Source: an uncultured Planctomycetales bacterium (GTDB lineage: Bacteria; Omnitrophota; Gorgyraeia; Zapsychrales; JAHFFX01). Taken from it: a stretch of 64,000 nucleotides of DNA. Shown in pieces: positions 27,001-48,000 of the stretch. A program made the translations under genes and the position numbers. The stretch spans positions 508,896 to 572,895 of the forward strand of contig CAZTCI010000001.1 in NCBI GenBank assembly GCA_964612665.1, written 5' to 3'. The notes under the pieces were generated by a model. The model saw only the letters and a list, made by a program, of their open reading frames with translations. It was not told the origin of the DNA and made no database searches. Positions within the stretch are counted from its first letter, which is position 1; the number at the start of each line of letters is the position of its first letter.

Positions 27001-30000
27001 GATCACCAACGTCCATGGGTTAGGAACTTTTTTAGACAAATGCGCGGACAAATGATCTGAAATGGTTTCTTCCAGCGCACTCTGCCAGATATATCGTTGA
27101 GAACGACCGGCAAGAAGTTCGATTCTTCTGGATGAAGAAACGATATTTATATTAAGAAAATCAACATTCTGTTGCCTGTGGATTTGCTGTGCCGCCAGCT
27201 GGACAACGCTATGTAGGATAAGGCCGGCTAACGCGGGTTGATTGTTCAGTTTCAAAAGACCGACGACAAATCTGCGGGGAAGATAAATGACGGGGCCATT
27301 GTCATTCCATTCCGTCGCAGCGACAGCCACATGACGCCAGTTGTCCGCATAAAGGAATGGTTGGCTCTCATCTTCGCGATCGCGAACCAAGATCAATTGA
27401 CTTCGAAGAAGGATGTCAAACAAATCGCTCGCCGCGACGAAATCAAACAATCCTCCCCGAATTTGATCCCACGGGATATTCATCAACGCACTTAAACTCG
27501 CGTCGAGAATTGAGCGATGCAACTCCATGTGAGTTAATAACGGTTCAACATAACGTTCATTCCTTCGACGAACTTTGTCGATTAGTTCCTGGATTTTCTT
27601 GTACTCTATATTCCATGCCTTCACTAACCTGCCGTTCTCATGATTTGTCATGACACCTGCGGCGGCCATCAGCATGAGGGAAGCCGTCACCGCAATGAGA
27701 CTAAAAGACCAACCACCGCCGAGCTGCTCCCATCCCAACAAAGCCTTCGCTTGATGATCTTTGTGATTAAATCTTTTATCGTCTGAATTAACCAGGGGCG
27801 TAATATCTTGAGCCATGGGCAGCGGCTCGATATGATTTCCGTTCGTGGATTTTTCTCTTGGCTCCCGTAAAAGTGAAGCCTCGTAGCCAATACCTCGATC
27901 TTTTCCATTATTTGGCCATAAACGATATTTCTGCAAGAACGAAGGGTCCTTAAGACTCTTTTTCAAATTTTGAATCATGATTCGACTCTTTATATCGCTT
28001 TTGAGAAATTCATTCCTTAACCTCAGAATGATATTCACAAACTGCTGTTGAGTTACAAGGACTCTTGTTTCTTTAAGCATCTGGTGTCCATAATATTTTA
28101 TGGCCATGCTGATGAGTTGCTTGATATCAGACTTTCCACCGTATGAATTCTCACTATATTCCTCAATAACTTTTCTGATCGCTTCGATCAAACCTGGATC
28201 ACCTTCCACCCGTCGATATTCTTCTTCTGTGATATAAACTGCATTCTCCTCGGGAAGCAGCATGACATCACCATTCGCAAACGGGCCTTCTATTTTTAAA
28301 AGACCGTCCCGCTTGGCTATCACGTGGCCAACTTTATAATAACGGTGTTCGACATATAAAACATCATTCTTAACGGGGTTAAAGCGGCGTCCAGGCATTT
28401 GAAAACGCCACAGAGGATATAAATTCTTTTCCAATTTTGAGATGATCTTAAGACTTATTGGATAGAGCGTATTCTTGCGAGGCAATCTCGCGCCACGGAT
28501 TTTCGCAACGGAAACTTCACATATCTGAACAAGACGCTTATCGGAGATCTCCATTATTTTGGGATTGTCCATAAGGCGATTGAGCGCTTCGCGCGCCTCG
28601 ATGAGTTGTTTAAGCACCGGCCGCATCTTGGCGATCACGTTTTCAGATGGAGTGGCTTTTTGTAGACGATATAGCTTGGCATCACGAGAAACTTTGGAAC
28701 GCTGATTGATCTCTGAATCCGTAATGCCCAGTTGGTTGGCTTGCGTGAGCAGTTGAACCAGTTCTATTCGAAGTTTTTTGAGATCTGGCCTTTGTTCTTT
28801 GAAATATTCCGTCAGGGCCATAAGCAATTTAGAGATAGTCGATGCGTGCGGCAACGTCCTATTTCCGGCTGCAATCATACTGATCGTGGTCTGATCCACC
28901 CCAGATAATTTTGCCAAACTCTCCTGATTTAATCCTTGCTCAAAAGCGTTCGTCATCAAGACGAGTACACTTCTAAATTGTTCCGCCGGAGATCCTGCCA
29001 TAGGCAGTCGATCCAATTTACTTTCAATCGATGCAATCGTATCTCGCCTTAATTGCGCCGGAGCCTCTCCTAATATTTTGCGCAGCGTTTTGTCATCAAT
29101 ACCCAATCTCGCCCGGATGGCCCGTCCCGAATATTGGCCTTCCTTATTAAGTCTCTTGATGTAATTCTGAAGGTCAACGGGAAGAATCACCATCACAGCC
29201 AATCCCGACAGGATTTTTAATACAATTATTATTCCTTTGAGGCCGATCAAAAGCCACGTGGATTCGAGGGTGATCGAGGAGAGTTTCTCCGTGTTTTCGT
29301 TTGAAGATTTTTTCCCAGGTTTGTCTTCATACTGCGCCACTTCTTTTAATTTCGACGCCAAACGATCAATATAGTCCTGAGCCTCGTCGGTGACGACGTA
29401 ACCCTGAGCTTCCAGGACATCCAAAACTTCCAGCACAAAAGCGGCCATCATCAAATAATGAATCAAATTTCTACTTTTCCAAGAAGACCATTCTCGAGGA
29501 GAATTTTCTTCTACATAGATCGGTTGAGGAATCGTTTCAACACGGCCTCCCACTTCTCTCAATTGCGAATGAATATTCTCAATCTTAGGAAGATAATCAA
29601 CATACCGCCACAACACATTTTCTTCTGTCTCGATATCCACCCCTTCGCGGAAATAATTCCAGGCCGTCACGATCATTTTCTGATCATAATCTCGCTTTGA
29701 AACGATTCCTTCCCGTCGAAAAACGTACTCACGATCAATCGTGCCCGAAATCATATGCATATAATACAGATCAATATATCGTCGGCCGCCGTTATTCCAT
29801 GGTTTTAAGTCCAAGTTGAATCGTTGATTGGCCTGGAAAATAACCTCGGGGTTAATCAATGTTCTATACAATAGAAGTTCCGTACCAATGGAATCGATGG
29901 TTCTCGTATCCGTGTCGATGAGTATAATTCGGTCTGTTTCCGGAGATAAAATCCCCTCGTCGTGCCAGTATTTGACAAAAAGGACCGCTTGAAGTGAATC

Positions 30001-33000
30001 TTGCCGAACGGCTTGGTCATTGTGCATTGTCGCCCAAACACTATGCATGCGCTCTTCAGGAAATTCTTCTGTAATTCTGGTGTAAATCTTTGACATTTCA
30101 AAAAGCGGTTCGGCTCCTGCTCGCAAGAACACAATACGCGTGTTCTTCCGGTATTGCTTATTCTCTTCGTGGGATCGAGGATATTCTTTGATACGCATGA
30201 ATACGTGTTGTATGAAATCCATCAATCCCAGTCTGCGCTCGGCGCCATGACCCAAAAATGTCGTCAAATGTTTAGTATCCAAATAGTGTTGATACGCTTT
30301 GGCAAACATTGCTTGATCCCCCGCAGAAAAGATTCGTCCGAGGGATTGAATACTCTGATTACGCGCGCGAACATTATCTTCATGTAATCTGAGTCGATTT
30401 AATCTAACCGAGGCAATGGCCGCAAATCCTGCCAGGATTTTAAAGATCAGCATTACACCCTTGATGCCGATTATGATCCACGCGGCGTCGAGGGTGAGGG
30501 CGGGAAGCTTTCCAACATCAGATGTTGGAAAGGGCGGGTTCAACCTGCGGGGTTGATGTCCGTTGGCATGCTTCTCTTGCGGATGGGTGAACTTTTCCGA
30601 GGAAAACTTCTTTATATCTTGGTCGCTCCACTCTTCTCCAAACACCTTTTTTAAATCCGATTTATTTCCGTTCTTTCCGTTCCTCTCCTTCTTTGCCAAA
30701 TCGTCATAGAATTTTTTCATGATCTCATCTTGCCGACGATCGAACTCCTCGGCGGAGAGAGACCAGTCATCTCGCTCTCGTTTGTATGCTTCCTCCGGTT
30801 TCCGATTCTGATTTAACCAAACGTCCTTAAGAACATCGTAGAGATTACACAACATGCGATTCCCCGCAAATTGCCTTAATCCCTCCCGATTGTCCTTATT
30901 CTTCAATATAATGCGGGCCATTTTAGTCTTCTCGAGATCCTGCTTGAGAAGGTGAACTAGGGCTTCATGGCGTCCGAGGTTTATTTTGGCCTCCCCGAAC
31001 ATGTCTTTCACAATTTGAACAAAAAGCTCAGGACCGATCTCCCTCATCGATAGCCAGGCATGCAAGACGATTTCTACTTTTTCTTCCTCGCTTTGAATAC
31101 GATGATGCCAAATCCAGATTTCATCAGAATTTTTGAGACCGCCAGAGGCATGGGAAGATCGAGAAAGGTCCCCATAGATCACACCGACGACGAAGAAGAC
31201 CACGATCAACATTTGTATCGGCGAGAGAACCGTCGACTCCACTCCCAATCCCAAGGCATTCATGGCCGTTGGTTTCCCGGGCCCGCGGAATGCTGTGAGT
31301 TCATTCAACCTGCGGGGTTGATGCCCGTCGGCAATTTCATTCGAAGACTTGATGTGGCGGAATCCTCGGTCGGAGATGTTCAATGTGAACCCATCCTCAT
31401 CAGAGAAACTACTGTAAAACAAAATCTCCCGGGCCAAATACGTTTCGTTAAACTCGATGACCAGCGCCTCACGCTTTTGGCCCATCTCCAACAGATCGTT
31501 CCACAAGAATGTTCTTGAAAAACGAAGTTCGCCAGCACCGATACGAAACGTAATGATGATGTCATTTCCGATGAGCCGGCCTTTCACAAAATAGATCCCT
31601 TGATCTTCCGTCACAATCCGGATTCTGGAATGTCTCAACAGCGTTGAAATCGGCAATTTGATTACTTCTCTGATATGATAAACTTTCTGGAGGGAATATT
31701 CGGCGTAGAAGGACAGCTCGTCTGCATCTGGAAGATGAAGGATAAAGTCATGAATCGGCGGCAATCCGCAGGCGGAATTGGTGAGCATGGCCATGATCAT
31801 AAAACGGATCAGCGTCGGGCTGCGAGTGAAACCAGCGACCTTAAGCCAGAATAGCCATACGATCATTGCCGTAATCAAAACGGCGAGGAAATATGCTAAG
31901 AAAGCAGCTGATAATTTCTCCTCAGAAGACGTCTTCCACCAGGTATATTTTTCCTTCATCTCATGATAGGAATTCAAAATAAGATTTAACGTTCCCTTCA
32001 CGCTTTGTTCCGTTGTCCCCCGCTCGGTGCTGATGTCTTGAATCGTCCATCCATTTAAGATCAGCGTAATAATCTCGCGCTGCGGCGGCGACATTTGATT
32101 CAATAGGGCCCGACGATGTGGATCCAATGATTGAGAATCGCGGATAATTTCGCCCAGGATTTGTTTCCGTTGAGAAGCACCCGCGCCTTGGAAATGAATG
32201 TTGATGCCTTCATGCAGCGGATATAATTCATCGCACCTTTCTTCCCGTTCAATTTGTTCTCTTAGGGGTTTCAAAGACAATTCGTTCTTAAGATCACGGT
32301 ATCTGAGTAATCCTCGACGGGCGGTGATGATCACCGTAGTCCACTTAATCTGCAATAGTCGGGCCACATCCGCCGGATGATAACCTGCAATGGCAAACGG
32401 AAGAATTTCTCGCTCCTTTTCCTCCAGCTGATCAAAGATCTCTCGATGGTCCAAGAGAAAATCTTGTTTAACCTCTCTGAGAATATTGATGAATTCTCGA
32501 CGGTTGGGAGATTTCAGGAAGAAATTGAATTCCGCATCTCGATCGTTGCGGATAACCATCATGGCCAACATGCCGGGTAAAAGGAGTATGACCAAAAAGT
32601 AAAGGCCCTGTATTTCTATAAAAATGATCTGTGTAAACGCGATCAAGACAAGCACGGACGGGAATACGGCGGAAAGTTTTTCCACCTTCCGATCTTGCGA
32701 TGTGGGGGCCAACTCTTTCTCAACAAGCTCCCCACGATATACCATCCGCTGAACAAGGCCCATCGGATAATTGATTTCTTTTAAGTCACCCTTATAGGCT
32801 TCACGCCGGATAACTTCATTGAGCAGGCGAAGTTTCTTTTTGATCTTTTGGACCTGATCTTTTTCTTGCGCACTTAAACTTTGATGATTAACGTATTTTT
32901 TGTGAAGTGTATAATCGTAAACGCTGAGCGAGATCGTCTGTTGTTCTTCTCCAACAATAACGACATTACCTTGATCCCCGGCTGGTTCGATGAAGAATTG

Positions 33001-36000
33001 ATACACAATTCCCTCAGCATAGAGATAATATTGGATTTGTGCATGGCTGTTATTAAAAATGCGGATATCATCAACCGAAAGATAATGCGGCCCATCAGGA
33101 TGATTGTGCAGGTCCAAATAAACGAGGGGATAATCTGGATTTAGTTCCGGACCGACGGAATCCTTATCGCCTTTGACGATACTGTAAAGGTCCCCTTCCA
33201 AGGATTGATGGGAAACTTCAAAAGGTAAATATCCAGAGGCGACGGTGTAAAAACGATCAATCGCGCGCCAGAACTCCGGCGTCCCGACGGCCGCGGCAAA
33301 TGGTCGAGCGCTGTAGCGTGTTCCTTCCTTCGCACTAATAATATCCTGCTTTATCTGATCGAGCGTCATGACTGGCCGACGCTGGATCCGGGAGATAAAC
33401 TTCCGACGGATGAATTCCTGGGCTTCCAGTTCATGGACGGCCATACCGATTATCGCGACCGCCGTCAGGCCGAGCAGGCTAAGCCAATCGGTATAGGCGG
33501 AAAGTTTTTCCACCTTCCCAACCCCGGAGGTTGGGGAGGATAATAATTTTTGGCTAAGATCTGCAGCCACATCCAAGTTTTCCAACACTTTCGTCGCATC
33601 TTTAGAACTTTTAATAAAGACAACCGCCTGAGAAACCGCCGCCGATATTGTTTCTATTTCGCCGATCATCGGAAAACTTCTCTTCCAAATAGCAAACTGG
33701 TGATTCCACGCAGCCAAACGCAGTTTGATGGCCAGATACCTCTTATCGGCCCATAACTCCTTCACTTGATCTCGGGCATGGACCATCGACGGGATTCGGT
33801 CCAAGGACAGGAGCAATCTTTCCTGATTTTCCCGTCGTTGTGCTTCCTGAAGTTCCCGTAATTCTTTTCTAATTTGCTGTAGTTCTTTTAAACTATGGAA
33901 CAATTGCTCAGTGGACGGGCCTTTAAGGACCGTCCGCGACATAGCTGCTGCCATTGCCCCCATCCCAGCAGAGAGCAATATCTTTCCGACGGGGATTCCA
34001 AACCATAACGCGGTCCCCCCATCTACACCTACGAGGTAAAGATGGATCCCCACTCCATACAACGCCAGTGCAATCATGACGGATGGAAATATGGCGAAAA
34101 GTTTTTCCACCTTCCCAACCCCGGGGGTTGGGGAGGATCTGAGGATCACCGCCAGCATTTCAATTAGTCCAACCAATCCCTTAAACACAATCCAAATCCA
34201 CACGGCTTCGATCGTGACGGCGGAGACGTTCTCGATGGGATTGTGATCGAATTCTTCTAGCGCATCGATTTTTCCGTATAAATATTGGGCCAAATGGCGG
34301 ATATCTTTTCGATAGTCGTGCGTCTTAACCAAATCCCAGAGGTTCAATTGTTCCCATTGATCGCCGGCAGCTTCGAGAGCTGCTTGGATTATCTTTAACC
34401 ATTCCTTCGCATAGAATTCTCGATGACGGAAATTGGACGCCACAATCCAGTGCAGTAATTCTTCTTCGGAAGATGTCTTCAACATCTCAATCGCGGCCCG
34501 GCGTTTGGCTGGCGAAGTGACCACCAAATCATTCATCCGCAAATGCTCGTTGAGAATGTGCTTCAGGCGCCGAGTCCTGGCAGAATTCGCCAAGCTGGTT
34601 TTATTTGTGAAGTCATCAAGAGAATTGAACGGATTGTTTAGCTTGCGAACCATCACCACAAATTCGGTCTGCGTCATTGTAAATCCACTCAAAAGAAAAT
34701 CCACCTCATCAGCGTAATTAAGGAAATATAGAATTTGTTTTTTGGTGTTTTTCGGGTGCTTCTGCAATTCTCGACGATGTTGCTCCGCATTTTCTTTCTT
34801 CTCTTTTCGTCTTTCGTTCTCTTTCTCTAAATCCGCCCGTGCCCTTTCACGAGGATTCTGAAATAGAATCTCTCGACGGTTTTCGGACGTTCGTTCCCAC
34901 GACATCGCAAAGACAAAGATATATGCCAGCAACATCCACGGACTGAACAGATAAGTACGAACTCCGGAATGATGGACGATTTGTTTCTGTGGAGTTTCTT
35001 CTTTAGTTGACAAGCCAACTTTCAGGGCTTGGGCGCGGCTGGCGGAGAGGTAAATCAACCGTTGAACAAACATGCCCGCGATCATCAGCACCGTAAAGAC
35101 ACTCATTCCCGTCGATAAATCGATCGTCACGGCGCGGTGTTTTTCGATATCAGAAGAACGACTTGGTGTTTTATCTTGTGCATTCAACCTGCGGGGTTGA
35201 ATGGACATCCTGTTCCCCTTCACACCTCCGAGGCGCGAAAGAGCATTATTTCTTAGCTTTTTACGAATACTTATAATTTTTAACACTGAACGAATATGCC
35301 ATTCTCTTAGCCCCAACCGCTCTTCCCGGATTTCTAATCTATCCCCAGGATATTTTTCAAAATCTGCAGTCACAATTTCGATAAGCCGTTCCCTTTTTTC
35401 TAGCTTTTCTCTTAAACGCACTCCCGCGGCTTTCTGCTTTAAGAACGTTAAATCATAATCCGGCCATATTTTGCTAATAATGTAATTCGACACTTGTTCA
35501 ATGTATTGATGCGATGATCCCATCTGTTCGACAATGATGCTTGATGATTGATCCAAAGCTATTTTGCGGACTAACACTTCTTTTTGCGGGAGCGTTAGTC
35601 CATACCTATCTCCTATATCGTTAAGGGTCCTTACAAGTCCTTCTTTAGTGATGGCATAGCCACTACTCTCCATAATGTCGCGAGCAAAACTTACTCTATT
35701 ACCATGCTCCATCGCTGTCTCCTGAGACGATAGAGAAGATCGGTATTCCTGGATCCCTTTTTGGCGATCTCGGTTTCGCGCATATGTATTTCGTTCGCCT
35801 CGAATTTTTAAATTAATTCCATTAACGACATATGTCAATAAGCCTACGCCATTGCGCCGATCAAATTTGATCACACTGCTGCGAATAGTTTTAATGAAGT
35901 CATCTGTTCTTTCCTTTAGGAAGGATCTATTCCATCTCTGTTTAACTAAGGGCATTTCTGTCAGACCGGCGATGAGGACTTCCATCGCCAAACCATCTTT

Positions 36001-39000
36001 CTTATCTTGAATAAGGTCAATTAAACGGCTCTGTTGCTCACGGCTTAAATATCCTCTGGAATGACGTGGCATGCCCAAGATCGTATTGACAGCGGCTTCA
36101 TCTCTTTGCTGAGGAGCCCAAATAATTTTAAGTTTAGACTCTTTAATAACCGGCACAGGAGGATTCAGCCCGTACCATTTCTTCATTTCATAAAGAATTT
36201 CTACTGAGCTTTTTCCTTTTAGATCGTGATTTTTTGCCCAGTTCAGCAGAAGCCCCTCTAAACATTTTCCTCCAAACCCTGGAATACCTGTATGAATAAT
36301 ATCGCCCACTTTTAAATCTACTATCTTCCCTGCACGGCGATGATTGGCTAGATGTTGAAGGATCGCCCATTGCAACCGCTCTTCAAGTTTGTCCCAGGAG
36401 AATTTCCTCGCCCGTCGGAATTGATCCAATACCGTTTCCAATTCTTCAAGGGTTACTGGTTTTTCTTCTGCCATCGTCATAAGAACAGCAGATGCGCAGA
36501 GGACTGCTATCCACGCTTCCGCACCTACGAGGTGCTGATGGGTAACCATGGCGACGAAAGCGGCGGAAATGATGATAAAGCGGAAGACTCCGTCGAGGAA
36601 ATCATTCAGTCGGCTGGGTTGAACAAATACAATTCGACGCAAAATGGAATTCACATTGTCTTGGCCGACATACGCAAGCGCCGCCGCAATTCCTACCAGA
36701 ACAAAAATCCATAAGGATGGACCAACGGCCATCAGTTTTATCTCTCGATCCCAAAACTGACTTGGCCCACACCGGCGGACAACAAATTTCTTTTCCAAAT
36801 CCTCTTTGACCGTCGTCACATCTTCTTGGACGATCGCGTCCGCCACACGTAAAGAAAATCCCATTTGCAGGGCCTGACGGCCGGGCATGGATGGGCTATA
36901 TCTCAAGCGAAGCCCCTGAATCAACGCGCGATAGGGCGCTTCCTGTCCCCGGAGAAACTTAAGGAAGGCAAACTGTTTGATTTCTTTGGTGGATACGGAG
37001 GTTTCAATATTATTTCTAAGATACGCTAAAAATTCTTTGTAATAACTGACCCAGTGCTCAAGGATTCTTTCCAGCCCCAACTCATTTAATTGTTTGTTCA
37101 AACGATTTGTGTTCCCAAAGACCAAATCTGTCGGTTTAAATTTATCAAATGTATCGGAGGTAATAGGACTCAATAAACAGCGCTCATTTAACGTTGATAC
37201 ACTGAGCTCATGCTTTTCGCCCCCGATTCTGACCCACCGCCCCAATCCCCGTCGGGCCAGGGCAATGAGATATTCGGGTTCGATATCAAATTGATCTTTC
37301 CCTTGATAATAAACGTGAATGTCCAGGTCCTTGATCATGGACCACAATGGGATTTGATTTTCGCTAAAAAGATAGGTCGAGGAGCCGGTGACCGTGATGA
37401 TCGGAGCCTCCACAATGGATAACGTAGCGACTTGCTTTAGAAGTTCGATTAAATCGACCGGCGGTAAAGCTGGATTGTCTGGCTGAACAATAAACTGGCG
37501 CTCAGGACGATAGTAGGAAATGTGTTCATCTTGGTCCACGATCAAAACAGGCCAATGCACTGTTTGGACCGCCGCCAGTAATATCAGCGCGTAGACCGCC
37601 TCGTTCAAACCGATCAGATCTCCGTGGGCCAAAAGACCGGATAAAGCCGCGAGGATGGCGATAGGGCGGAAGAGTTGTGCGATCAACCTGCGGGAGTGAA
37701 CAGACTTGATAAAGCGGAAAATTCCGTCGAGGAATAACATCACCCTCTCCGACGGCGGCGAAGTCTTGAGAAATTCGTAAAACGCGCGGAGGTTTTCAAG
37801 GATGACGCGGGATTTGGAGATTAGAACAGCGGCCATCAAAACAATAATGAGAATTTCCGCGAGGTGAAACACATTATTCGACGAAAAATTTGATTTTCTC
37901 GTCGGTCTTATCCGTGCAGTCGAAAGGAAATCGATTCGATGGGCGTTCAACGTCGCGGCATCTAATAATTCAAACCCTGGGAATGTTTGATCGACGATAT
38001 GTTTAATCAAATCCGCCAACTGATCCGCAGGGATTTTGATTAGATATCCTGGAATTCGGTGCATCTGCTGAGGACTAATTTCCCTCATCTCTTCTGCAGT
38101 CAAAAATTGAACCGCGGCCATCGATACAACCCGGCCTTCTAATCTGTTGACAGTCCATTTTCGCGACATTATACTTTGAATCGAAAAGGAGATAGATTGA
38201 TGACTTCTCTTCAAGATGCTATGAAAATCATTAAACCGCTTCAAAACCGTTTCAAGAAAAGCCATAAGTCCAGAAGAAAAACGAAGATTGCCGACGATCT
38301 TTTGGGTGCGTTCAAAGGTGCGACCGAAGGTAAATCTTCCAGTCAATGTGTTCGAGAATTGAGAAATTCTTCTTATGGTAAGTTTAAATAACCCTTCCTT
38401 GCTCTTGGACTCCGATGTCCTTGTCAGCTGGTTGACGCTCGAAGAAGATATTCTTACCCATAAAAAGCTCTGGGAAGCTCCCCACAAAATAATGACAATG
38501 GTTGAGGAAAATTCTTCTCTCGGTTGTTCAACGATTATCAATCTTATGGAAATCAGGTTTGTGTTGCGTGCTAAGAAGAAATTCAGTGAGCATAAGATTA
38601 CATCTTCTCTTAATAAACTCTCCGAGATTCTGAAGCTATTCATTCCAGATGAAATCAACCTATTAAAGGCGAATGAACTCCAGTCCAAATATCTTTCATT
38701 ATCGCCAACCGACGCTATCCTTCTGTCTGTGGCCACAACCCTAGACAATGTTGTCCTAATCACCCGCGATCGAGAATTATTGAAAGCTGCCTCAAAAATT
38801 GTCTCCGCATCAACTCCTGAAGAATTTCTGGCGAAACGCTGATCTCTTCTGTTCCAATAAAAATTCCCCACCAGCATTGCAATTAGCCCAACCACTCCCT
38901 TAAACACAATCCAAATAAAGCGGAAAATTCCGTCGAGGAATAACATCATCATCTTCGACGGCGGTGAGGTTTTAAGAAGTTCGTAGAACGCGCGGAGGTT

Positions 39001-42000
39001 TTCGAGGATGACGCGGGATTTGGATAGCAGAACAGCGGCAACCAAAATAATGATTAGAATTTCCGCGAAGTTAAAGGAGTTATTCGTTGGAGAATTCGAT
39101 TTACCCGTCGATCTCGTGGCGAGAGCTCTGCTGTCCTGAGATCTTCTTTCTGTGGTGACGAAAGTTCCTACCCTTCTTAAAATTTTGATAACTCTATCCC
39201 TTCCCTGAAGGTTATTAGAACTCTGTCGAGATTGGGGTTGTTCAACGATCGGCAAAGTGACGAAAAAGCTGGCGCCCTGGCCCAACTCGCTCTCCACATC
39301 AATCTCTCCATTGTGCGCCGTAATAATGCTTTTCACAATGTAAAGTCCCTGGCCGGTCCCGTCTTTTCCTTTCGTCGTGAAATATGGCTCGAAGATTTTA
39401 GAGACCAGCTCGGGCGCGATCCCGGGGCCATTGTCTTTCACCTCGAATTGCACGAGGGGCGCATTGTCGATTGGCGTGACGATCAACTCAATCTTTCCGT
39501 CTGGTATCTGCGCTAAGGTATACACCGCATTCTTTAGGAGATTGATAAACGCATGCGTCATCTGAATTTGTTCGACATCGATTCTAATCCCGGCGGCAGC
39601 GGAAAAATCAATCTGAAGTTGCTGTGGATCGAAGAGAGCGAAGATCTCTTCAAAATGTCCTCTAAGATTAGTCAAGAATTCCTCGACGGAAATGACTTTC
39701 TTCTTACCTTTCCCGGAATAACTGAGATAAAAATCAATGATTATTTTAAGCCGGTGGGTAACGCTGTGGAGGGTTTTGAGGACTTCACGCTTGGCTTTAG
39801 GCTCAACGATACCTTGATCGATATTTTTGTCTTGCGGATGCTGGCGGAAATCTTTGACGAGCTGCTTCCAGGCGCGATGAAACTTTTTCAGTTCAGGTAA
39901 ATCATCGAGAAGGATTTGCAACGCCAACATAATTAACCTTTCGCGCTGTTCTTGTGTAAACGGTTGGGCATAATTTTCAAGCACCTGTTGTAATGCCGGA
40001 TTGAATAACCCACCTATTGGCCTTTTCTCTCTTAAAGATAAGGTTGTTCTGTCATGCTCGGGGAGAAAAGGCCTAATACTAGACTTTTGCAATGCAAAAG
40101 TCAGTAATAACTCCGCTCGCTGTTCTCCTGTAAGCAGCTCAGCATATTTTTCAAGCATCGCCCGTTTTAATTCTGGGTTTGATAATGACTGAATATCGAC
40201 ATAAGGTTGATCAGATGCGGCATGGTTGCGAAGAATCTTCAAATCATTAATTTTCTCGAGAAGATTTAAATCCATAATATTCTCACTCAAAGATTGCATA
40301 GCGGATTTGAATGGTTCCGGCAAAATATCGGCATTACCGTTTGCCGGATCAAAGAATAAAGTAATCACGGTCAAATCATTGCCGATTTCATGCAGGAAGA
40401 CCGGCCCCAAATCAGCGATGATCCCCTGCCAATAATCTTCTTTTGGTATCCGCATTACCATAACGACAACCATCGATAGTCCCAGCAGCCAATTGAACGG
40501 CATAATGTATACGGCGTTTCTCTCGGTTGGGAGCTTCATAAATACATATTCCCTTCTGGCCACTGTCTGAATTTCAAGACCAAGCGGCTTTCGGTTTAAC
40601 GTTTTGAGCATTTGGGTGATAAAGTTTATCCGCCGCAAAACTGATGTGATCGGCATGCTGCTGCCATCACCCAACGTCGTCCCTGGTTTTTCTTCCAGCA
40701 GCATCTCCATGGTCTGCCCAATAACTGTCAAGGCCCCGGACAGATTTATGACGACGGGCCCGTCTGTAATAGAATTTCTAAACGCCGTCCCCATCACATT
40801 GCTTTTCCGCACTAAAGCGATCAAATCCTTGGCCTTTGGTGTCGTATCATTGCCAAACACAGGGTCGGATTCTGCCTCCTGCTTGACGTTTAGCATTGCT
40901 TCCAAAATCAATCTTGCGGACTCGCGTGCCCGTGTCGGATCTCCTAACGCTTCGCGTTGGCCATTAACAAATTTAACGAACTTAACCAGCTCCGTGCGCA
41001 GAGCCTTAATCCATTGCGGCCATTCTAGGTAATAAAATAATTGTTCCAGGACTGCCATAATAAGGAGCGTGCGTTCTCCGACGGGTTGGATTGGATTTCT
41101 AGATATTTGTTCTTCTTTCTGTTCAATGTCTAGAATCAAATGCCAGACTGGCTCTACAAATGCTTTCCTCTCAAGCAAGCCCCTTGTATATTTGAAGAAA
41201 TCATTCTGAGATTCATGATGACGCAATACTCGACGGGCAGCCAAACGGGCCATGGGATATTTCATGGAGCCGATTAAATCAGTCAACGTAAGATAATTTT
41301 TTACAAAGCTGCGCAATCCTGGCTCTTCAATCAATCCTTTAAACTCAATCAGCTCGGAAATAAAACGGAAATAGAAAACAAACCGTTCTCCGCCGGCCTT
41401 ATAAAGGATCCGTTTCCTTCCCGTGGCGGAAATAGGCCTATCATTTAAAACTTCGATCAGCCAAGCAGCGATCAAAAGTCTTAATGCCTCCATGTCCTCA
41501 TCCTCAACCGGCCCACTTAAAATCCACGCGCGTTTTTCGTCGGTGGAAAGGGCCAGGAGATTATCGAGACCAGTATACTGGCCGCGCACCGCCATCAAAA
41601 ATACCGGAGCGCTCAGCAACATCAAAGACATTCCCATCCATAAAACGGTTTTGATGGCGAGTATAACCAACATCAATCCGCCCACGGCGCCGACCAAGGC
41701 GATGGAATGCAATTTCTCCTCGAGCTGCGCGATTTTATTTTCTATTCCATTTGTCTTTTCAGATTCTTGGTCTTTCTTCCCGTTTCCATTCAATTCAGTG
41801 GAATACGCTGTCAGAGTGAATAATTCTTTTAAGTCCTCTTCCCATTGCTTATGAAAAGGAAGGCTCTCTGCATATTCCTGGAAGAGACCTGCGCGCAGCT
41901 GACGCCACACCATATGGTCGAGCAAGACCTGACCATTGATGACAAATGCCTGCGCAAAGTGTCTTAATTCCTCGACGTAGGCCGGATATTTCTGTGAGAT

Positions 42001-45000
42001 CTTTTGTAAAGAAGACAATTCCTCGGATAGAGAATCTTTCTTAAGCAAAGCATCCACGTATTGTTCAATCTGTTGGCTTTTAGCATAGTCATGGTCTTGC
42101 GATAAACGGATACGTTCTTCAATACGATCCGTGGCTGTTTCAAAAGCAATGATCCAATCGGCATCAGAACCGGAGAATTCCGAGACATAGCTTGATACCC
42201 TGGACTTTAATAAAAGCCTGTGCGTCGTCCCGGCCTCACCGTTACGGGCGATACGGGCCATGATTTGTCGCATATCACGTTTGGAAAAAAGAACGTTGTA
42301 AAGAACAGCCACAACGCCGGAGGCAACATTGGTCAAAATATTCACCCCTCGGCCTCCCATGGGACTGGTAATAAGAATCGTAATCTGTAAGCGGCCTTTC
42401 TGGTTAATAACATAACCGGCCTTTTCAAATTGACCGGCTTCTTCCCTGCGCTTTTCAGGATTTTGATCGATCCCTAAAACAGTCTCAATCTTGATATCAT
42501 TGTTGGGCCGGCCTCTTTCCAAGATGGCGTTTAATAGTTCCTTGACATGATGGGCCGAAGCGATATCTTCCGTCGCGATAAAAACCGGCCTTCCTGACAA
42601 TAAAGCATTCATAACAATTTCGATTAAGCTTTGGTCCATCTCTTCCACGGTCTCATATCCGATGGAGGAATGATCAACCCGGATGGATTTGATATCGGAG
42701 GGTTGAACATACACTTGCATGTTCAATCTTTTCTTTAAATGCTGTTCAATCGTCGGACTCATCTCTGAACCACTGACCGCGGCATAGCCATGTCTATACA
42801 ACTTTAAAAGGGAGTGATACGTCAAGGCCGCCAAAAGCCGGCGCGGATTCTTTTCATTGTCGATACCGGAACGCGCTTCTATCATACGTTGTACCTCGGG
42901 AGAATAAACACGCAAAATGTCCGGGCGTTTACTATCGTCGGGAATAGGCAATACATTTTCACGTTTAGCATCTAAACAAAAATCATGATCCTCTTTAAGG
43001 TTCCAGCCAATCACCGCAAAGTCCGCCAGCTGACGCAAATGCGCATCAGAGATTTCATCTAATTCCCGACGATTTCTAAGAAATTCCATAATCTTCCGCG
43101 GGTCACGCCAAACCACTTGTCTTCCCTGATCGGAAGAAATAATCTCTTCGGGATTCGTAGCCCAATCTTTCAACAAAAAGAAGACGTCCTTATCAAAACG
43201 ATGCCACGCTGTATAGGCTGCGATAATTCTCTTCACTAATTCTTTATCCTTACCGTTGACGATGATGTCGATCGACAGAGTATTCAAGACGGAGAAGATA
43301 TCCCAAAGATAATAATCCGCCTCATCCAATAAAGCCCGACGATCAATGGTCAATGGTTGTTCTAAACTTTTTCTGGTCGAAATTTCTCGCGCCAGGGCTG
43401 TTAAAGAAATATATCGGATCTGTGCTTTGCCGGCTTCAGCCCAGAGAGAGGAACCAAAAAATCTAGTGAACCTTTTTGACTGGCCCGGAATAAGTAGTGT
43501 ACGGGACCCTTCGGTGATGCAGCTTACGGAATGCCCCAAAGAAGCCAAAATCCCGGCCTGACTGTTAAAGCCGTCTTGGGCCAAATGATCTGTCGTGGTG
43601 ACGATATCCGTTGATACACCCATTTTCTCCAGAGCATCGGCCGCCATCGACAAGGCCATGGTTTTTCCGGCGCTGGTATCAAACTTGACAAAATATCCCC
43701 GCGATCCGTCTTCGGTCCTCGGTTGCATCAAGAGTTCAGCAGTTTTAAGTTGTGCGGGGCGGCGTTGATACTTAATCATAATATTCTTATCAGCCATCCT
43801 TCGACGCGCAATGACCTCAAATTCCTCTAATGATTCCCTAATTACGTCGGGAAAATATTCGCTCAAGGATAAAGGCAGATCGGTCCACGCCACGCCATTT
43901 TGTATCGATGTTTTAATAATTTCTTTTTGTTCACTGAATACGTTCAGTTGAGGGGTGGGAGTCTCGTCGATCTCCCCAATGATATTCGCGGGCGTAGATA
44001 AAGATTCCATCTGAAGTCTTTCTGCCTCCTCTTCCAACGGCGAAACTTTTTCCGGACGCTGGAACTCAAACGACATCTCGGGTTCAGGAGGCTGAAAAGC
44101 AATTCCAAAATAATGGGCGAGATGATGGACTGACTTAAAGAATCTTTCCATTGATATCTCAAATCTTCCTTGTTCATAATTCTTCACTGACGACTGGCTT
44201 AATTGTAGAATTTCGGCAAATTGAGTTTGAGATAAGTCCAGCTCCTTACGAAGATGGGTTAAATTCAAGAGATATTTTTTCAGTAAAGCATTCTGTTGGC
44301 TGTTTGGAGAGGATTTCGCTTCTTGTTGAACATCATTGATGAATTCTTTCACTTCCGTCGGGACCTCACTGGAAACATTGTCCATTAAGAAATCTATAAC
44401 CTTCTTCATTGACTTTGCGCTAAGTTTCCATGCCTTGGCAGAACTTGCGTGATCTACAATATATTTTTGCCCTCCCATCGACGCGATCATTGTCTCGACA
44501 GAGTATCTCTGCTTAAAACGATTTAGTAAATGCTTAATCGGCTCGCTCAATCTCTTAAAAATTTCGCGTCGTTCTTCTCTTGATGCACGCAAAGCTTGTG
44601 CATACAAAAGCTGTATCTGCTGCTTCCACTGCTTAATGTCTCGAGACCACTCACCAATGGGCTGAACATCCTCATTCTGCCCACCGAAAGTAGAGATGAT
44701 GATAGATTCATCGATGAGCTGAACATTCTCATTCTGCTCAAAAGCGATAGGAATCTCGTCCGCCTCTTGTAATGAAATCAAGCTAGAGATTGGCTTTTCT
44801 TCTTCAATGAACTGAGTATCCTCATTCTGCTTACCGATCAAACTTTCATCGACCTCAGGCAAAGTTAATTCAAAAGTCGTTTCTTCATCGCTTTCTGGAG
44901 TAAGGATGATGATAGATTCATCGATGAACTGAACATTCTCGTTCTGCTCAAAAGCGATAGGAATCTCGCCCATCTCCCCAATTCCATTCGTGGGCGGAGA

Positions 45001-48000
45001 TAAAGATTCCATCTGAGATATTTCCGCCTCCTCTTCCAACGGCGAGACTTTTCCCGGAAACTGGAACTCAAACTTCATCTCGGGCTCAGAAGGCTGAAAA
45101 GCAATTCCAAAATAATGGGCGAGATGATGGACTGATTGAAGAAATCTTTCCATTGGTATCCTAGATCTTCCCAGTTCATATTCCGACACTGACCACCGGC
45201 TTAATTTTAGAATTTCGGCAAATTGGGTTTGAGACAAGCCCAGCTTCTTACGAATGCGGGTTAAATCCGAAAAATATTTTTTCAGTAAAGCATTCTGTTG
45301 GCTGTTTGGAGAGGATTTCCCTTCTTGTTGAACATCATTGATGAATTCTTTCACTTCCCTTGGAACCTCACTGGAAACATTGTCCATTAAGAAATTGATG
45401 ACCTTCTCCATTGACTTTGCGCTAAGTGTCCCCGCATCGGCAGAACTTGCGCGATCTACGATATATTTTGTTACTCCCATCAACGCCATTTTCTCGACAG
45501 AGAATTCTTGCTTAAAGCGATCCAGTAAATGCTTAATGGGCTTGCTCAATCTCTTGCGTTGTTCTTCTCTCGACGCACGCAAAGCTTGGACATACAAAAG
45601 CTGCATCTGATGCTTCCACTCGTTAATGTCTTGAGACCACTCACCCATGGGCTGAACATCCTCTTCTTCTTTCCGTAGAATTTCTTCCGTCCGTTGGGAC
45701 TCAAACTTCGTTGCGGGCTCAGAAATCTGAAAAGAAATTATTGAAAACTTTTGAAAATAATTCTCCACAATTCTTTCTAATAACGGTGTTTCCTGCATCC
45801 TCCAAGGACGAATTGTTTTGCCTTTGTCCAAATCATTCTCATCGCGATGAGAAAACTTCGCCATCCCCAACATCACGCCCGCGAATCCCAGAAGATTAAT
45901 GAACGCGATGAAATCCATTGCATAAAAATGCGCCGTTCCGATCATGGCCAGGATGGATGCGATGATCTTTACAAAAATTCCGTTGATCATTGTAAACAGC
46001 ACCATCGCTCCCATAACGACCGACCAAACCACCCAACCACCGGCCACGTTGAGAAATACGATAGAAGACAATGTGCTTATCCCCGATGGGACCAATTCAA
46101 GTTGCTCTGGATTGGTTTGAGCAATATAAGATCTAAATATATATAGTTTCTCAAAGTAACTTTTATTTATGTCGGAAACGAGATAATCTAGACGATGATG
46201 ACTAATTCCCTTTAATCCTTCCAACCGTAACATCGCATTAACAAAATTCATGGCTAATGAATTATTGCCTTTGCGGAATAAAAACCATTGGCTCGATTCA
46301 TCGTGCCCAAAAGTGCCTAAATAGAAACCAAAAATGCGTTCAATACGACTATTGATATCCTTCTGTTGCTGACCGTCCTTGACCCATTCCCCCAGATGAT
46401 TCATCATCTTGAGAATCCGTCGATGAATATCCTCTTTGGATCTCGCTCTCAGTTCTCCTGCGACATTCAAGGCATAATCCTCACTTGGATAAAAGCGTTT
46501 TCCGTCCTTGCCTAACAGAAGAATGATATTAAAATTCTTAAGCCAAATTAAGAAATCTTGGGTCGTGGTTATACGGTCCGAGACGAAATTGAATAACAAA
46601 CGCAAAATCTCTCCTCGAACTTCGTGGGAATTAATCCAATAATTCCTCTGCTCATCCATCGACGGCCATATTGCTAAAGTCGAAGGATCCGGGTTTCTGA
46701 TCATTTCTTCTTTAGGTAGCTGTAAGGCATTTTCCCAATTCCAAGTCGGCATGGCCCGTTTGAACATCGCCAGTTCTTTTGTCGCCACATCAACAGAAAC
46801 ATCCCGGTCTTGCTGAAGAACCGGATCAAAAATCACAACAGTTGGATTTTCCGAAGTCCCCTTCACTGCCATCCTCACAGCACCCGCCATAACGATCGAT
46901 GCGATCCCCAGATAACCAATCATCGAATGCCCAAGCCAGGCAGCCGTCAATACCTCCAAAAGCCCGGTAATTCCGACGATAAGAACCCAGTGATACCACT
47001 TTGCTTGAGCCAATAGCTCATGGAAAAATTCCTTTGTGTCTTGAACGATGACCTTCCAACTCAGCCTGGTCCTCCATGCCCGTTTCCACTCCATGACCAA
47101 GATGAGGAATTGAATCAAAATAATCAGGCCTGTTACGATTGTGATGACAAGATCGGCCGTCGGTGAAAGTTCCTGTTGGGGCACCACATAGGCCGCCTCG
47201 GTCAAGCTTGGCAGAATCCCCTGCAAAAACAAAACGCCGGCAAGCACCAACAACAGCGCAATAGCCACGAATACGAAATCAAAAATTCCTGCTACCGTTA
47301 CCAGATCTCCAAATCTCTCAGAAAACTTCGAAGATAAAATCCGTGCATTCCAGCCAAACGGAGAAACGAGGCCTTCATCCCCTAGGTGGATTTCCGGTAA
47401 ACGTCTCAAATCCAAAATCAAATGATCCTGGCCAGCCACTTGGCGTTCTTTTATTTGGTAAATTCCTCTGAAAAAGTCATTGTTCCGTAAGAGAAGATAA
47501 TCAAATTGGGCGGCTAATGTTTTAAGGAAATTGTTTTCTGGTTTGAAGAAGTCCCGCGCTCGACGGTACATTCTTTGTTTGGCCTGCGTTTTGTTCAGTC
47601 CTTCATGTTTTTGATAATAGGCGCGCACGGCCTCGTGGTTATATCCGGCCATATGATAGACGCCGAGCTTAACGATCCTTTCGTTGAAATAAAGCTCAAG
47701 CGATACGAGACTTGACTCTTTAGATGATCCGAATAGATCAATCGAGACAAGATTTAAATTTTCATTAACCTCAATCTGTTGAACACCGTCCCAATCGTGA
47801 GTTAATTCCAAAACCCATTGCTTGAAGGATTCTGATAATTGATCATCATTAACAAATCGCATCGATGCCAGCGTCGAAGAATTTTGGTCCATCATTCCCG
47901 CGGTAACAAAAATCATCGCCCACAACACCCCGATTCCACCTACGAGGTGGAACGTGGTCCAAACGGCGATTAGGAAGGAAGGTATAACGGTGAAGCGGAA

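Follow-up and report, generated by a model that had tools for sequence, protein, structure and literature searches.

Type II toxin-antitoxin operons of the VapBC type, such as FitAB of Neisseria, the VapBC systems of Shigella and Mycobacterium, and PAE0151/PAE2754 of Pyrobaculum, pair a PIN-domain toxin that carries four conserved acidic residues with a small upstream partner gene, and are transcribed from their own promoter. Separately, the giant genes of Omnitrophota (West-Roberts et al., 2023, bioRxiv 10.1101/2023.11.21.568195; 2026 preprint 10.64898/2026.06.07.730766) are uninterrupted reading frames of tens of kilobases with many transmembrane (TM) helices and SecA DEAD-like domains, and these papers list toxin-antitoxin genes only among flanking or hypervariable-region cargo. 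Toxin-antitoxin cassettes are also scattered through chromosomal super-integrons and genomic islands, where they reportedly counteract large deletions (Rowe-Magnus et al., 2003; Szekeres et al., 2007), and both antisense overlapping (dual-coding) genes and genes nested in very large ones, such as comS within srfA of Bacillus subtilis, have been proposed or described in bacteria.

The locus described here combines elements of these systems. The window that was analysed is a 64,000-nt stretch of an uncultured Planctomycetales bacterium assembly (GCA_964612665.1, contig CAZTCI010000001.1, positions 508,896 to 572,895), which contains no marker gene. The minus-strand frame whose triplets start at plus positions 1, 4, 7 and so on has no stop codon over all 64,000 nt (21,333 codons, GC 44.7%) and runs off both ends of the window, while no other frame stays open for more than 978 nt. 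A crude Kyte-Doolittle scan of its translation gave about 80 hydrophobic, helix-like segments, and Pfam scans returned sparse in-frame domains (HATPase_c, HTH_3, transketolase/E1, GerE and sigma-70 region 4), plus SecA-like fragments that score below threshold (SecA_DEAD at 23.2 bits against a cut-off of 24.6, P-loop_SecA at 19.7 against 27). The original prediction, that a promoter, a Shine-Dalgarno site, a small basic protein and an overlapping PIN protein lie on the plus strand within this frame without closing it, was confirmed in all its elements; an in-frame minus-strand stop within 38150-38900, which had been named beforehand as grounds for rejection, is absent.

The operon begins with a sigma-70-like promoter (TTGACA-17-TATACT, 38147-38175, plus strand), which is the only match of 11/12 or better on either strand of the window. 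As chance alone gives about 1.2 such sites per 64 kb, the weight of this element comes from its position and its conservation and not from the match itself. A Shine-Dalgarno site (AAAGGAGA, 38185-38192) lies 7 nt before the ATG of a 63-aa ORF (38200-38391, plus strand; pI 10.5), the putative antitoxin gene, which is codon-aligned antisense to the giant frame and contains no TTA, CTA or TCA codon. It is overlapped by 17 nt by the VapC-like PIN gene (155 aa, 38375-38842, plus strand), whose third codon positions coincide with the third positions of the antisense giant codons. The PIN protein matches Pfam PF01850 at E 9.5e-9 (36.4 bits against a cut-off of 23.6) and PF13470 at 28.1 bits against 27, has 24 homologs at 36-66% identity, and retains D12, E59, D113 and D132, which are invariant in 25 family members. 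A sequence-only search of the PDB found nothing, but an AF2 model (pLDDT 94.5) has a predicted VapC fold, with FitB, PAE0151, PAE2754 and the VapC proteins of Shigella and M. tuberculosis as top Foldseek matches in the PDB (TM 0.6-0.8).

The reading of this locus in the original prediction is supported, and is strengthened by comparative data: it is a real two-gene toxin-antitoxin operon, its activities being inferred, nested antisense in a giant frame that stays open, between two copies of a duplicated TM-linker module. Four points required correction. First, the operon had been called a classic type II system, but classic VapB is not shown. The small protein belongs to a conserved 56-64-aa partner family of this PIN clade (..ADxLLGxxxG....TSTE.I..LR.S.YGK), of which it is the most divergent member; it has no recognisable DNA-binding domain (AbrB, RHH, PHD or HTH), it matches no Pfam or NCBIfam model, and no operator-like inverted repeat was found at the promoter. 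Its assignment as an antitoxin rests on position, co-conservation and a single relative (locus L036) in which the peptide is fused to a MazE/AbrB domain. Second, the operon had been placed in a cargo slot where other slots carry an in-frame enzyme domain, but the duplicated module is not a general slot delimiter, as it has only two recent copies here plus two remote relatives at about 36544-36735 and 34045-34227, and neighbouring intervals show no Pfam domain. In-frame cargo next to the cassette was seen only in one related nested locus, L004, which has a receiver domain, together with the HATPase_c domain of the giant protein in the window (PF02518, E 4.3e-23; 39247-39570, minus strand), immediately N-terminal of repeat copy B. 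Third, the giant-frame peptide across the operon had been described as low-complexity, whereas it is a 214-aa Ser/Arg/Phe-rich mirror image of the toxin-antitoxin proteins (38200-38841, minus strand) with no predicted TM helix. Fourth, the repeats, which had been given as about 160 bp long with starts 1200 nt apart, are real and alignable, but their register is 37709-37908 (copy A) against 38915-39114 (copy B), an offset of 1206 nt (402 codons); they are about 200 nt long and 84-87% identical.

In the giant frame (minus strand), repeat copy B encodes a predicted TM helix, a linker and the motif FLDGIFRF, and its second predicted TM helix continues to about 38872. Copy A encodes the same TM-linker module, which contains a hydrophobic helix, and is 84% identical to copy B in nucleotides and 78% in amino acids, with differences by giant-frame codon position of 13/3/17. 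The bracketed interval also holds a 74-codon segment (37909-38130, minus strand) that is readable only in the giant frame (MAAVQFLTAEEMREIS...), has no family match, is not shared with the other nested cassettes and contains no plus-strand ORF of 40 aa or more. Only 5 local direct-repeat pairs exist in the 64 kb, so a pair that brackets the operon is not a background feature.

Comparative analysis revealed that this arrangement is not confined to the window. The close relatives (loci L001-L008, L029, L065 and L066, about 10 independent contigs, mostly Omnitrophota MAGs, the MAGs being labelled Candidatus Omnitrophota or 'uncultured Planctomycetales'), whose PIN proteins are 35-67% identical to each other and 48-57% identical to that of the window, all have one antisense frame, always in the same phase, that is stop-free over the whole contig or locus (1.7-20.4 kb). 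One further partial copy at 53% identity, L130, lies in a frame that is open for 1.4 kb and then stops. By contrast, none of the roughly 65 relatives checked outside this clade (49% identity or less, from Nitrospirota, archaea and others) lies in a long antisense open frame, the longest being 699 nt; these more distant relatives are ordinary stand-alone operons. The nested copies form one clade in a neighbour-joining tree. The -35, -10 and Shine-Dalgarno elements are conserved at the same position in 8 of 10 nested loci, the 17-nt gene overlap is seen in the window and in all ten other nested loci, and homologous 56-64-aa ORFs (longer in four loci) lie directly upstream of the PIN gene in 40 non-nested loci.

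Nested copies also carry a signature expected of dual coding. In the nested antitoxin genes, 0 of 84 Leu/Ser codons are TTA, CTA or TCA, against 103 of 330 in the PIN genes of the same operons and 122 of 427 in non-nested antitoxin homologs (29-31% in these controls). In the nested PIN genes, 0 of 38 risk sites create an antisense stop (0 of 5 in the window), against 111 of 341 (33%) in non-nested relatives (Fisher p 1.7e-6), and Tyr+His+Gln content is about halved, at 2.6 against 5.8 per 100 aa (p 1.5e-5). These statistics treat sites as independent although the sequences are related. It could be argued that the giant frame is not translated across the operon, which would then be an ordinary locus between two separately expressed genes, with the open antisense frame incidental. 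In keeping with this, public gene calls never read the giant frame through the cassette (in L001 the minus gene is called to start at 1956), no database protein contains the mirror peptide, and the antisense phase used by the PIN gene is intrinsically stop-poor, as about 1 in 20 non-nested PIN genes is open in it by chance. However, there is no in-frame stop on which an upstream gene could end, the frame is open for 64 kb here and for the full length of about 10 other loci, the codon-level avoidance is specific to nested copies, and every repeat spacing that brackets a cassette is a multiple of 3, so this alternative is considered very unlikely, even though translation through the mirror segment is inferred only from stop avoidance.

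Selection acts on the PIN protein and not on the mirror peptide: PIN-frame identity to the window is 48-57% whereas the giant frame over the same DNA is 35-42% identical to the mirror peptides of other nested loci; the giant frame, in turn, is kept open by codon and amino-acid choices specific to nested copies. These comparisons also bear on the possibility that the cassette is a decaying relic, captured long ago and no longer functional, so that only the giant frame matters. Toxin-antitoxin loci commonly decay, one nested copy (L029) has a PIN gene truncated after about residue 100, and the antitoxin of the window is the most divergent of its family. On the other hand, both ORFs in the window are intact, the catalytic residues are invariant, the modelled fold is confident, the promoter, Shine-Dalgarno site and overlap are conserved, and the PIN frame is the better conserved of the two, making a relic improbable.

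Homology between loci stops at the cassette edges (about 38107-38890 in the window), the flanks are unrelated between loci, and cassette positions are not conserved relative to giant-gene domains. In 178.6 kb of giant ORF, 8 of 16 local direct-repeat pairs bracket a toxin-antitoxin cassette, against 0.63 expected, and none of 200,000 simulations reached 6. Other toxin-antitoxin families (BrnT/BrnA, MazF, DUF433/DUF5615 and DUF5647) are nested in the same giant frames, with at least 4 cassettes in each of L029 and L065, and no empty-site ortholog or mobile vehicle was found among the sequences searched. Because only toxin-antitoxin families were detected on the antisense strand, and some such systems defend against phage, it is possible that the cassettes are abortive-infection modules for which giant genes merely serve as a tolerated landing zone, in effect a defence island inside a gene. 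This is regarded as unlikely: no PADLOC defence model matches the PIN protein, the BrnT toxin or the BrnA-like antitoxin, the 63-aa protein has only a marginal hit (SspE, E 0.004), no other defence genes were detected on the antisense strand, and no relative occurs on viral contigs.

Taken together, these observations are best explained, with fairly high confidence, by an autonomous VapBC-type operon, with a short basic antitoxin-like protein and a translationally coupled VapC-like PIN RNase, that lies wholly antisense inside an Omnitrophota-type giant gene and belongs to a single clade of cassettes that have become 'frame-transparent'. In this view, the antitoxin avoids the three codons that read as stops on the other strand, the toxin is depleted in Tyr, His and Gln and never places a T or C before them, and ribosomes reading the giant gene can pass through the mirror peptide. 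The typical flanking duplication of 45-200 nt of local host sequence points to insertion accompanied by a long target duplication, or to single-crossover integration of a circular intermediate. While the gene content, the open frame, the clade-wide nesting, the codon-level stop avoidance and the association with flanking repeats are established by the analysis, it is an inference that both strands are expressed, that the PIN protein is toxic and is neutralised by its partner, and that the pair acts as an addiction module whose loss, for example by recombination between the flanking repeats, would release the stable PIN toxin, so that the cassette would persist selfishly and, as a side effect, protect that stretch of a long, deletion-prone gene. 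A primarily regulatory role, which does not exclude this explanation, is also conceivable, in which head-on transcription from the toxin-antitoxin promoter and about 700 nt of perfectly complementary RNA would couple giant-gene expression to toxin-antitoxin activity in either direction: a strong, conserved promoter faces the giant gene, no convincing terminator follows the PIN gene, and several cassettes can sit in one giant gene. This remains doubtful, as the lack of conserved cassette positions fits opportunistic insertion better than a tuned regulator.

A more far-reaching, tentative possibility is that Omnitrophota giant genes and several families of type II toxin-antitoxin cassettes have a long-standing, co-adapted relationship, in which cassettes insert antisense with long target duplications, evolve stop-free mirror frames, and then act as anti-deletion 'rivets', and possibly as head-on transcriptional governors, of genes otherwise too long and repetitive to be stable. 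As a corollary, gene callers would split giant ORFs at every cassette, so that giant-gene lengths and numbers would be systematically underestimated and hundreds of nested operons would be hidden in existing data. More generally, the locus is one of the cleanest natural test cases for long antisense dual coding in prokaryotes, as about 640 nt and two complete genes of a known family overlap a frame inferred to be translated, and the signature is measurable at the codon and amino-acid level. It also links two fields that have not been connected, toxin-antitoxin biology and the maintenance of genes of 10^4-10^5 codons, and makes the anti-deletion idea directly testable. It exposes an annotation blind spot in which either the operon or the giant gene is called, never both, which probably affects published counts and lengths of giant genes, and the long and variable duplications hint at an insertion mechanism that has not been described for toxin-antitoxin cassettes.

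No prior report of such an arrangement was found, and neither paper on Omnitrophota giant genes mentions antisense, nested or opposite-strand genes, although the host frame resembles those genes in its length and, tentatively, in its hydrophobic helix-like segments and its below-threshold SecA-like fragments. Compared with VapBC-type operons, the toxin, the overlapping upstream partner and the promoter correspond, but the partner is a basic peptide without a recognised DNA-binding domain, and the whole operon lies antisense within another ORF that constrains its codons. As in super-integrons, several unrelated cassettes, each with its own promoter, are scattered through a long, recombination-prone array, and the proposed anti-deletion or addiction logic is the same; however, the host is a single ORF, inferred to be translated, and not an array of separate genes, and cassettes must stay stop-free on the other strand. 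Nor do these behave as integron gene cassettes, since the flanking repeats are local host coding sequence that differs at every locus, the 58-nt hairpin repeat of L008 lacks, by eye, the attC core motifs (RYYYAAC/GTTRRRY), and no integrase domain appeared in the Pfam scans. Finally, like other proposed dual-coding genes and comS, a small gene is embedded in a very large one and the same DNA would encode two proteins, but comS lies on the same strand as its host and most proposed antisense overlaps are novel small ORFs of debated function, whereas here the embedded genes belong to a well-defined family with free-standing relatives, which gives a direct control for the dual-coding signature.

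The minus frame whose triplets start at + positions 1, 4, 7 and so on contains no stop codon in the 64,000 nt of the window, translates to 21,333 residues and runs off both ends, while no other frame stays open for more than 978 nt. The overall GC content is 44.7%, and a GC profile places the toxin-antitoxin cassette at about 40-41%, which is within local variation and provides no clear signature of foreign origin.

On the plus strand, a TTGACA-17-TATACT promoter lies at 38147-38175 and is the only σ70 match of 11/12 or better on either strand of the whole window. Since about 1.2 such matches are expected by chance in 64 kb, the weight of this observation comes from the position and conservation of the element. 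The Shine-Dalgarno (SD) sequence AAAGGAGA lies 7 nt before the ATG at 38200, and the 63-aa product of 38200-38391 is basic (pI 10.5). This ORF overlaps by 17 nt a 155-aa ORF at 38375-38842 that passes the Pfam threshold for the PIN domain (E 9.5e-9). An exact look-up of the PIN protein found no record, but it has 24 stand-alone homologs of 145-170 aa at 36-66% identity and it retains the invariant residues D12, E59, D113 and D132. Although a sequence search of the PDB with the family profile found no match, a fold search with the predicted structure (pLDDT 94.5) identified VapC-family toxins as the best PDB matches: FitB, PAE0151, PAE2754, and Shigella and M. tuberculosis VapC.

The small protein belongs to a partner family that is conserved upstream of this PIN family in bacteria and archaea, with the pattern ..ADxLLGxxxG....TSTE.I..LR.S.YGK. 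Searches of Pfam and NCBIfam returned no family for this putative antitoxin, and PADLOC gave no defence model; the possibility that these loci form a phage-defence island is ranked below the interpretation developed here. In one relative, from a Bacillales MAG (locus L036, 4766-5035), the partner peptide is fused to an N-terminal MazE/AbrB (SpoVT-AbrB) DNA-binding domain (PF04014, E 1.3e-8), whereas elsewhere the family lacks any DNA-binding domain. This fusion is the best evidence that the small protein is the toxin-binding part of an antitoxin. Scans for inverted repeats and Rfam families around the operon found neither an operator-like inverted repeat nor an Rfam match.

The operon is bracketed by direct repeats at 37709-37908 and 38915-39114 that are 84% identical over 200 nt, with an offset of 1206 nt, or 402 codons. 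In the giant frame these repeats encode 78%-identical peptides of the form TM helix, linker, FLDGIFRF, and their differences fall 13/3/17 on giant-frame codon positions 1/2/3, a pattern expected for a translated sequence. Only remote relatives of this module occur elsewhere in the window, at about 36544-36735 and 34045-34227. The bracketed interval also holds a 74-codon piece (37909-38130) that is readable only in the giant frame and has no homolog, and a HATPase_c domain of the giant frame lies just upstream at 39247-39570. A plain tandem duplication of a module was considered and rejected, because only the 200-nt ends are repeated and the interior is not. A search for orthologs of the surrounding giant-protein segment, intended to find an empty or differently filled slot, returned only generic histidine-kinase hits to the HATPase_c domain.

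To ask whether this arrangement is conserved, contigs carrying the closest PIN homologs (loci designated with L numbers) were obtained from gene look-ups, GTDB genomes and JGI metagenomes. Every locus of the nested clade (L001, L002/L003, L004-L008, L029, L065 and L066, with best-segment PIN identity to the window of 48-57%) has one antisense frame with no stop over the entire contig or locus examined (1.7 to 20.4 kb), always in the same phase. These loci are mostly from Candidatus Omnitrophota MAGs or from MAGs labelled ‘uncultured Planctomycetales’. In contrast, none of the roughly 65 relatives checked outside that clade, which have 49% identity or less and come from Ratteibacteria, Nitrospirota, Elusimicrobia, one Omnitrophota MAG and many archaea, lies in a long antisense open frame, the longest among them being 699 nt. 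A further 53%-identical partial copy at a contig edge (L130) lies in a frame that is open for 1.4 kb and then stops. In an NJ tree the nested copies form one clade with deep branches, and the copy in the window is the earliest branch.

The nested genes also carry a dual-coding signature. The antitoxin gene is codon-aligned with the antisense giant codons, so only TTA, CTA and TCA codons would create stops in the giant frame. Nested antitoxins use these codons at 0 of 84 Leu/Ser codons, while the PIN genes of the same operons use them at 103 of 330 and 40 non-nested antitoxin homologs use them at 122 of 427. The PIN gene is in the phase where its third codon positions coincide with those of the giant frame, so stops can arise only at Tyr codons preceded by T or C, or at His or Gln codons preceded by T. 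Nested PIN genes have 0 stops at 38 such sites, against 111 at 341 sites in non-nested relatives (Fisher p 1.7e-6), and they carry half as many Tyr+His+Gln residues (2.6 against 5.8 per 100 aa; Mann-Whitney p 1.5e-5). These tests ignore phylogenetic non-independence, but the sequences are only 35-67% identical to each other. Over the same DNA, the PIN frame is more conserved than the giant frame (48-57% against 35-42% identity to the window). Therefore, protein-level selection acts on the PIN protein, and the giant frame is selected mainly to stay open. The peptide that the giant frame would encode across the operon (38200-38841, the ‘mirror’ peptide, including QRFARNSSGVDAETIFEAAFNNSR...) is Ser/Arg/Phe-rich, has no predicted TM segment and is not low-complexity.

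Public gene calls take the operon and cut the giant frame. In L001 (gene calls over 1-2934), the minus-strand gene is called to start at 1956, just beyond the cassette, and the toxin-antitoxin genes are called instead, while a search of 5.8 billion proteins with an alignment of mirror peptides found none that contains this peptide. Giant ORFs are therefore probably split at nested cassettes in public annotation, which probably explains why the arrangement has gone unnoticed. The alternative that the giant frame is an untranslated, incidental one is ranked lower. The two giant-gene papers and a related Omnitrophota preprint do not mention antisense, nested or opposite-strand genes, and full-text searches found no report of toxin-antitoxin operons nested in giant genes.

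Giant-frame homology between loci stops at the edges of the cassette (about 38107-38890 in the window), the flanks are unrelated or non-syntenic, and there is one copy per locus. The −35 and −10 elements and the SD are conserved at the same position in 8 of 10 loci; the proposal that the cassette is primarily an antisense regulator is ranked lower. In L065, two 50-nt, 78%-identical promoter-like segments (TTGACA-17-TATGTT; 8380-8429 and 9775-9824) precede two different adjacent nested cassettes, a MazF cassette at 8569-8961 and the PIN toxin-antitoxin cassette, suggesting a shared promoter module.

Cassettes in several loci are, like that in the window, bracketed by duplications of local sequence, and all bracketing spacings are multiples of 3. 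The repeats are 141-155 nt (95-99% identity, spacing 2400 nt) in L004, where the interval also contains an in-frame receiver domain; 45 nt and 117 nt (93% and 87%, spacings 1038 nt and 1683 nt) in L005; and 64 nt and 173 nt (92% and 76%, spacings 1251 nt and 1218 nt) in L006. In L008, perfect 58-nt direct repeats (9670-9727 and 10468-10525, spacing 798 nt) hug the cassette, and each contains a hairpin with a perfect 16-bp stem (AGAGGCGCTCTTTGCC-N17-GGCAAAGAGCGCCTCT). The element occurs nowhere else in the loci obtained; this is the youngest-looking insertion and the best place to define the junctions. In L029 (9808-11448), the PIN gene is truncated after about residue 100, exactly where a 203-nt, 96%-identical direct-repeat pair (spacing 930 nt) begins, and that pair brackets an AF2212-like antitoxin plus MazF cassette (10630-11206), so one nested cassette has apparently inserted into another. 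The view that the cassette in the window is itself a decaying relic is ranked lower.

Of 16 local direct-repeat pairs in 178.6 kb of giant ORF, 8 bracket a toxin-antitoxin cassette, where 0.63 are expected, and none of 200,000 simulations reached 6. These repeats could reflect a long target duplication or Campbell-type integration of a circle, although no mechanism was identified and a scan of viral contigs for the cassette found no vehicle. Another local pair in the window (21737-21839 and 22850-22952; 103 nt, 81%, offset 1113, a multiple of 3) brackets an interval (21840-22850) in which a search for a plus-strand gene found nothing gene-like.

Nesting of toxin-antitoxin genes extends beyond the PIN family. 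Among 150 plus-strand ORFs of 64 aa or more in the window, only three places hit Pfam: the PIN gene, a BrnT toxin (10801-11064, PF04365) plus CopG/BrnA antitoxin (11068-11322, PF12441) pair, and a coiled-coil ORF at 23206-23457. Nested pairs homologous to the BrnT and CopG/BrnA genes occur in L029 (1483-2094) and L066 (3847-4464), and no flanking direct repeat was found around the pair in the window. The 84-aa coiled-coil ORF has heptad-like repeats (NRVDNLEKSLNSRMDSLNSRMDSLEKRLDNLDKRVDGLERQ...) and hits several Pfam families (HSBP1, DUF7310, FlaC); it could be a third antisense gene or a compositional echo of the giant frame. Among 150 antisense ORFs of 80 aa or more in eight nested loci (114.6 kb), every Pfam hit is a toxin-antitoxin component or a likely one (PIN 9, DUF433 3, DUF5615 3, PemK/MazF 3, CopG 2, BrnT 2 and DUF5647 1), and L029 and L065 each hold at least four cassettes. 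Further plus-strand antisense ORFs are conserved between giant-gene loci (L002 134-415 and L005 7586-7870; L005 6765-7154 and L006 11030-11320). One is a DUF5647 protein, and another is an unannotated ORF of ~100-130 aa (stop to stop) containing ...KKLKKFDADNWLKEHIEELVDRFAGEYLVIANGQIY... with no Pfam match; these are possibly more nested cassettes.

Taken together, the analysis establishes a complete VapBC-like operon nested antisense in a giant ORF, conservation of this nesting across a clade, codon and amino-acid adaptation that keeps the host frame open, and an association with flanking duplications. By comparison, expression of both strands, the toxin and antitoxin activities, and an addiction role are inferred; in this view, loss by recombination between the flanking repeats would release the toxin, and stabilization of the giant gene would be a by-product. 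The observation in the original prediction, an antisense toxin-antitoxin operon between two alignable repeats in a frame that stays open, was confirmed. Its interpretation is supported with four corrections: the repeats, placed at 37715-37875 and 38915-39075, have the register 37709-37908 and 38915-39114; the small protein, presented as the antitoxin of a classic type II operon, belongs to a partner family that matches no Pfam or NCBIfam model; the ‘cargo slot’ between linker modules is not general, since only remote relatives of the module occur elsewhere in the window; and the mirror peptide, described as low-complexity and a plausible spacer, is not low-complexity.

The similarity of these loci to integron cassettes was also considered, but this idea was rejected because no attC site was found and no integrase domain appeared in the Pfam scans. 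As for the host frame, Omnitrophota giant genes are described as having many TM helices and SecA DEAD-like domains (bioRxiv 10.1101/2023.11.21.568195). In the window, a crude hydropathy scan gives about 80 helix-like segments, and Pfam finds only sparse domains in this frame: HATPase_c, several HTH_3/Xre, SecA-like fragments just below threshold, σ70 region 4, GerE, a DAO N-terminus and transketolase/E1 pieces. The partial housekeeping-type domains within 5800-20800 and 20200-35200 on the minus strand (Transketolase_N, Transket_pyr and PDH_E1_M; the first ~65 residues of a DAO/NAD_binding_8 Rossmann fold; Sigma70_r4_2; and GerE) are odd cargo for a membrane-anchored giant protein. Within the frame there are also four tandem copies of a unit of about 165 nt at 17240-17802 (62-100% identical over a 65-nt core) and an in-frame tandem duplication of about 1 kb at 43958-45667 on the minus strand (86% identity over about 720 nt, offset 1002) that has an HTH_3/Xre domain in each copy. 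Xre-like, MqsA-like, HTH_19 and Phage_int_SAM_4 matches cluster there in the giant frame, as if mobile-element regulators had been fused in frame.
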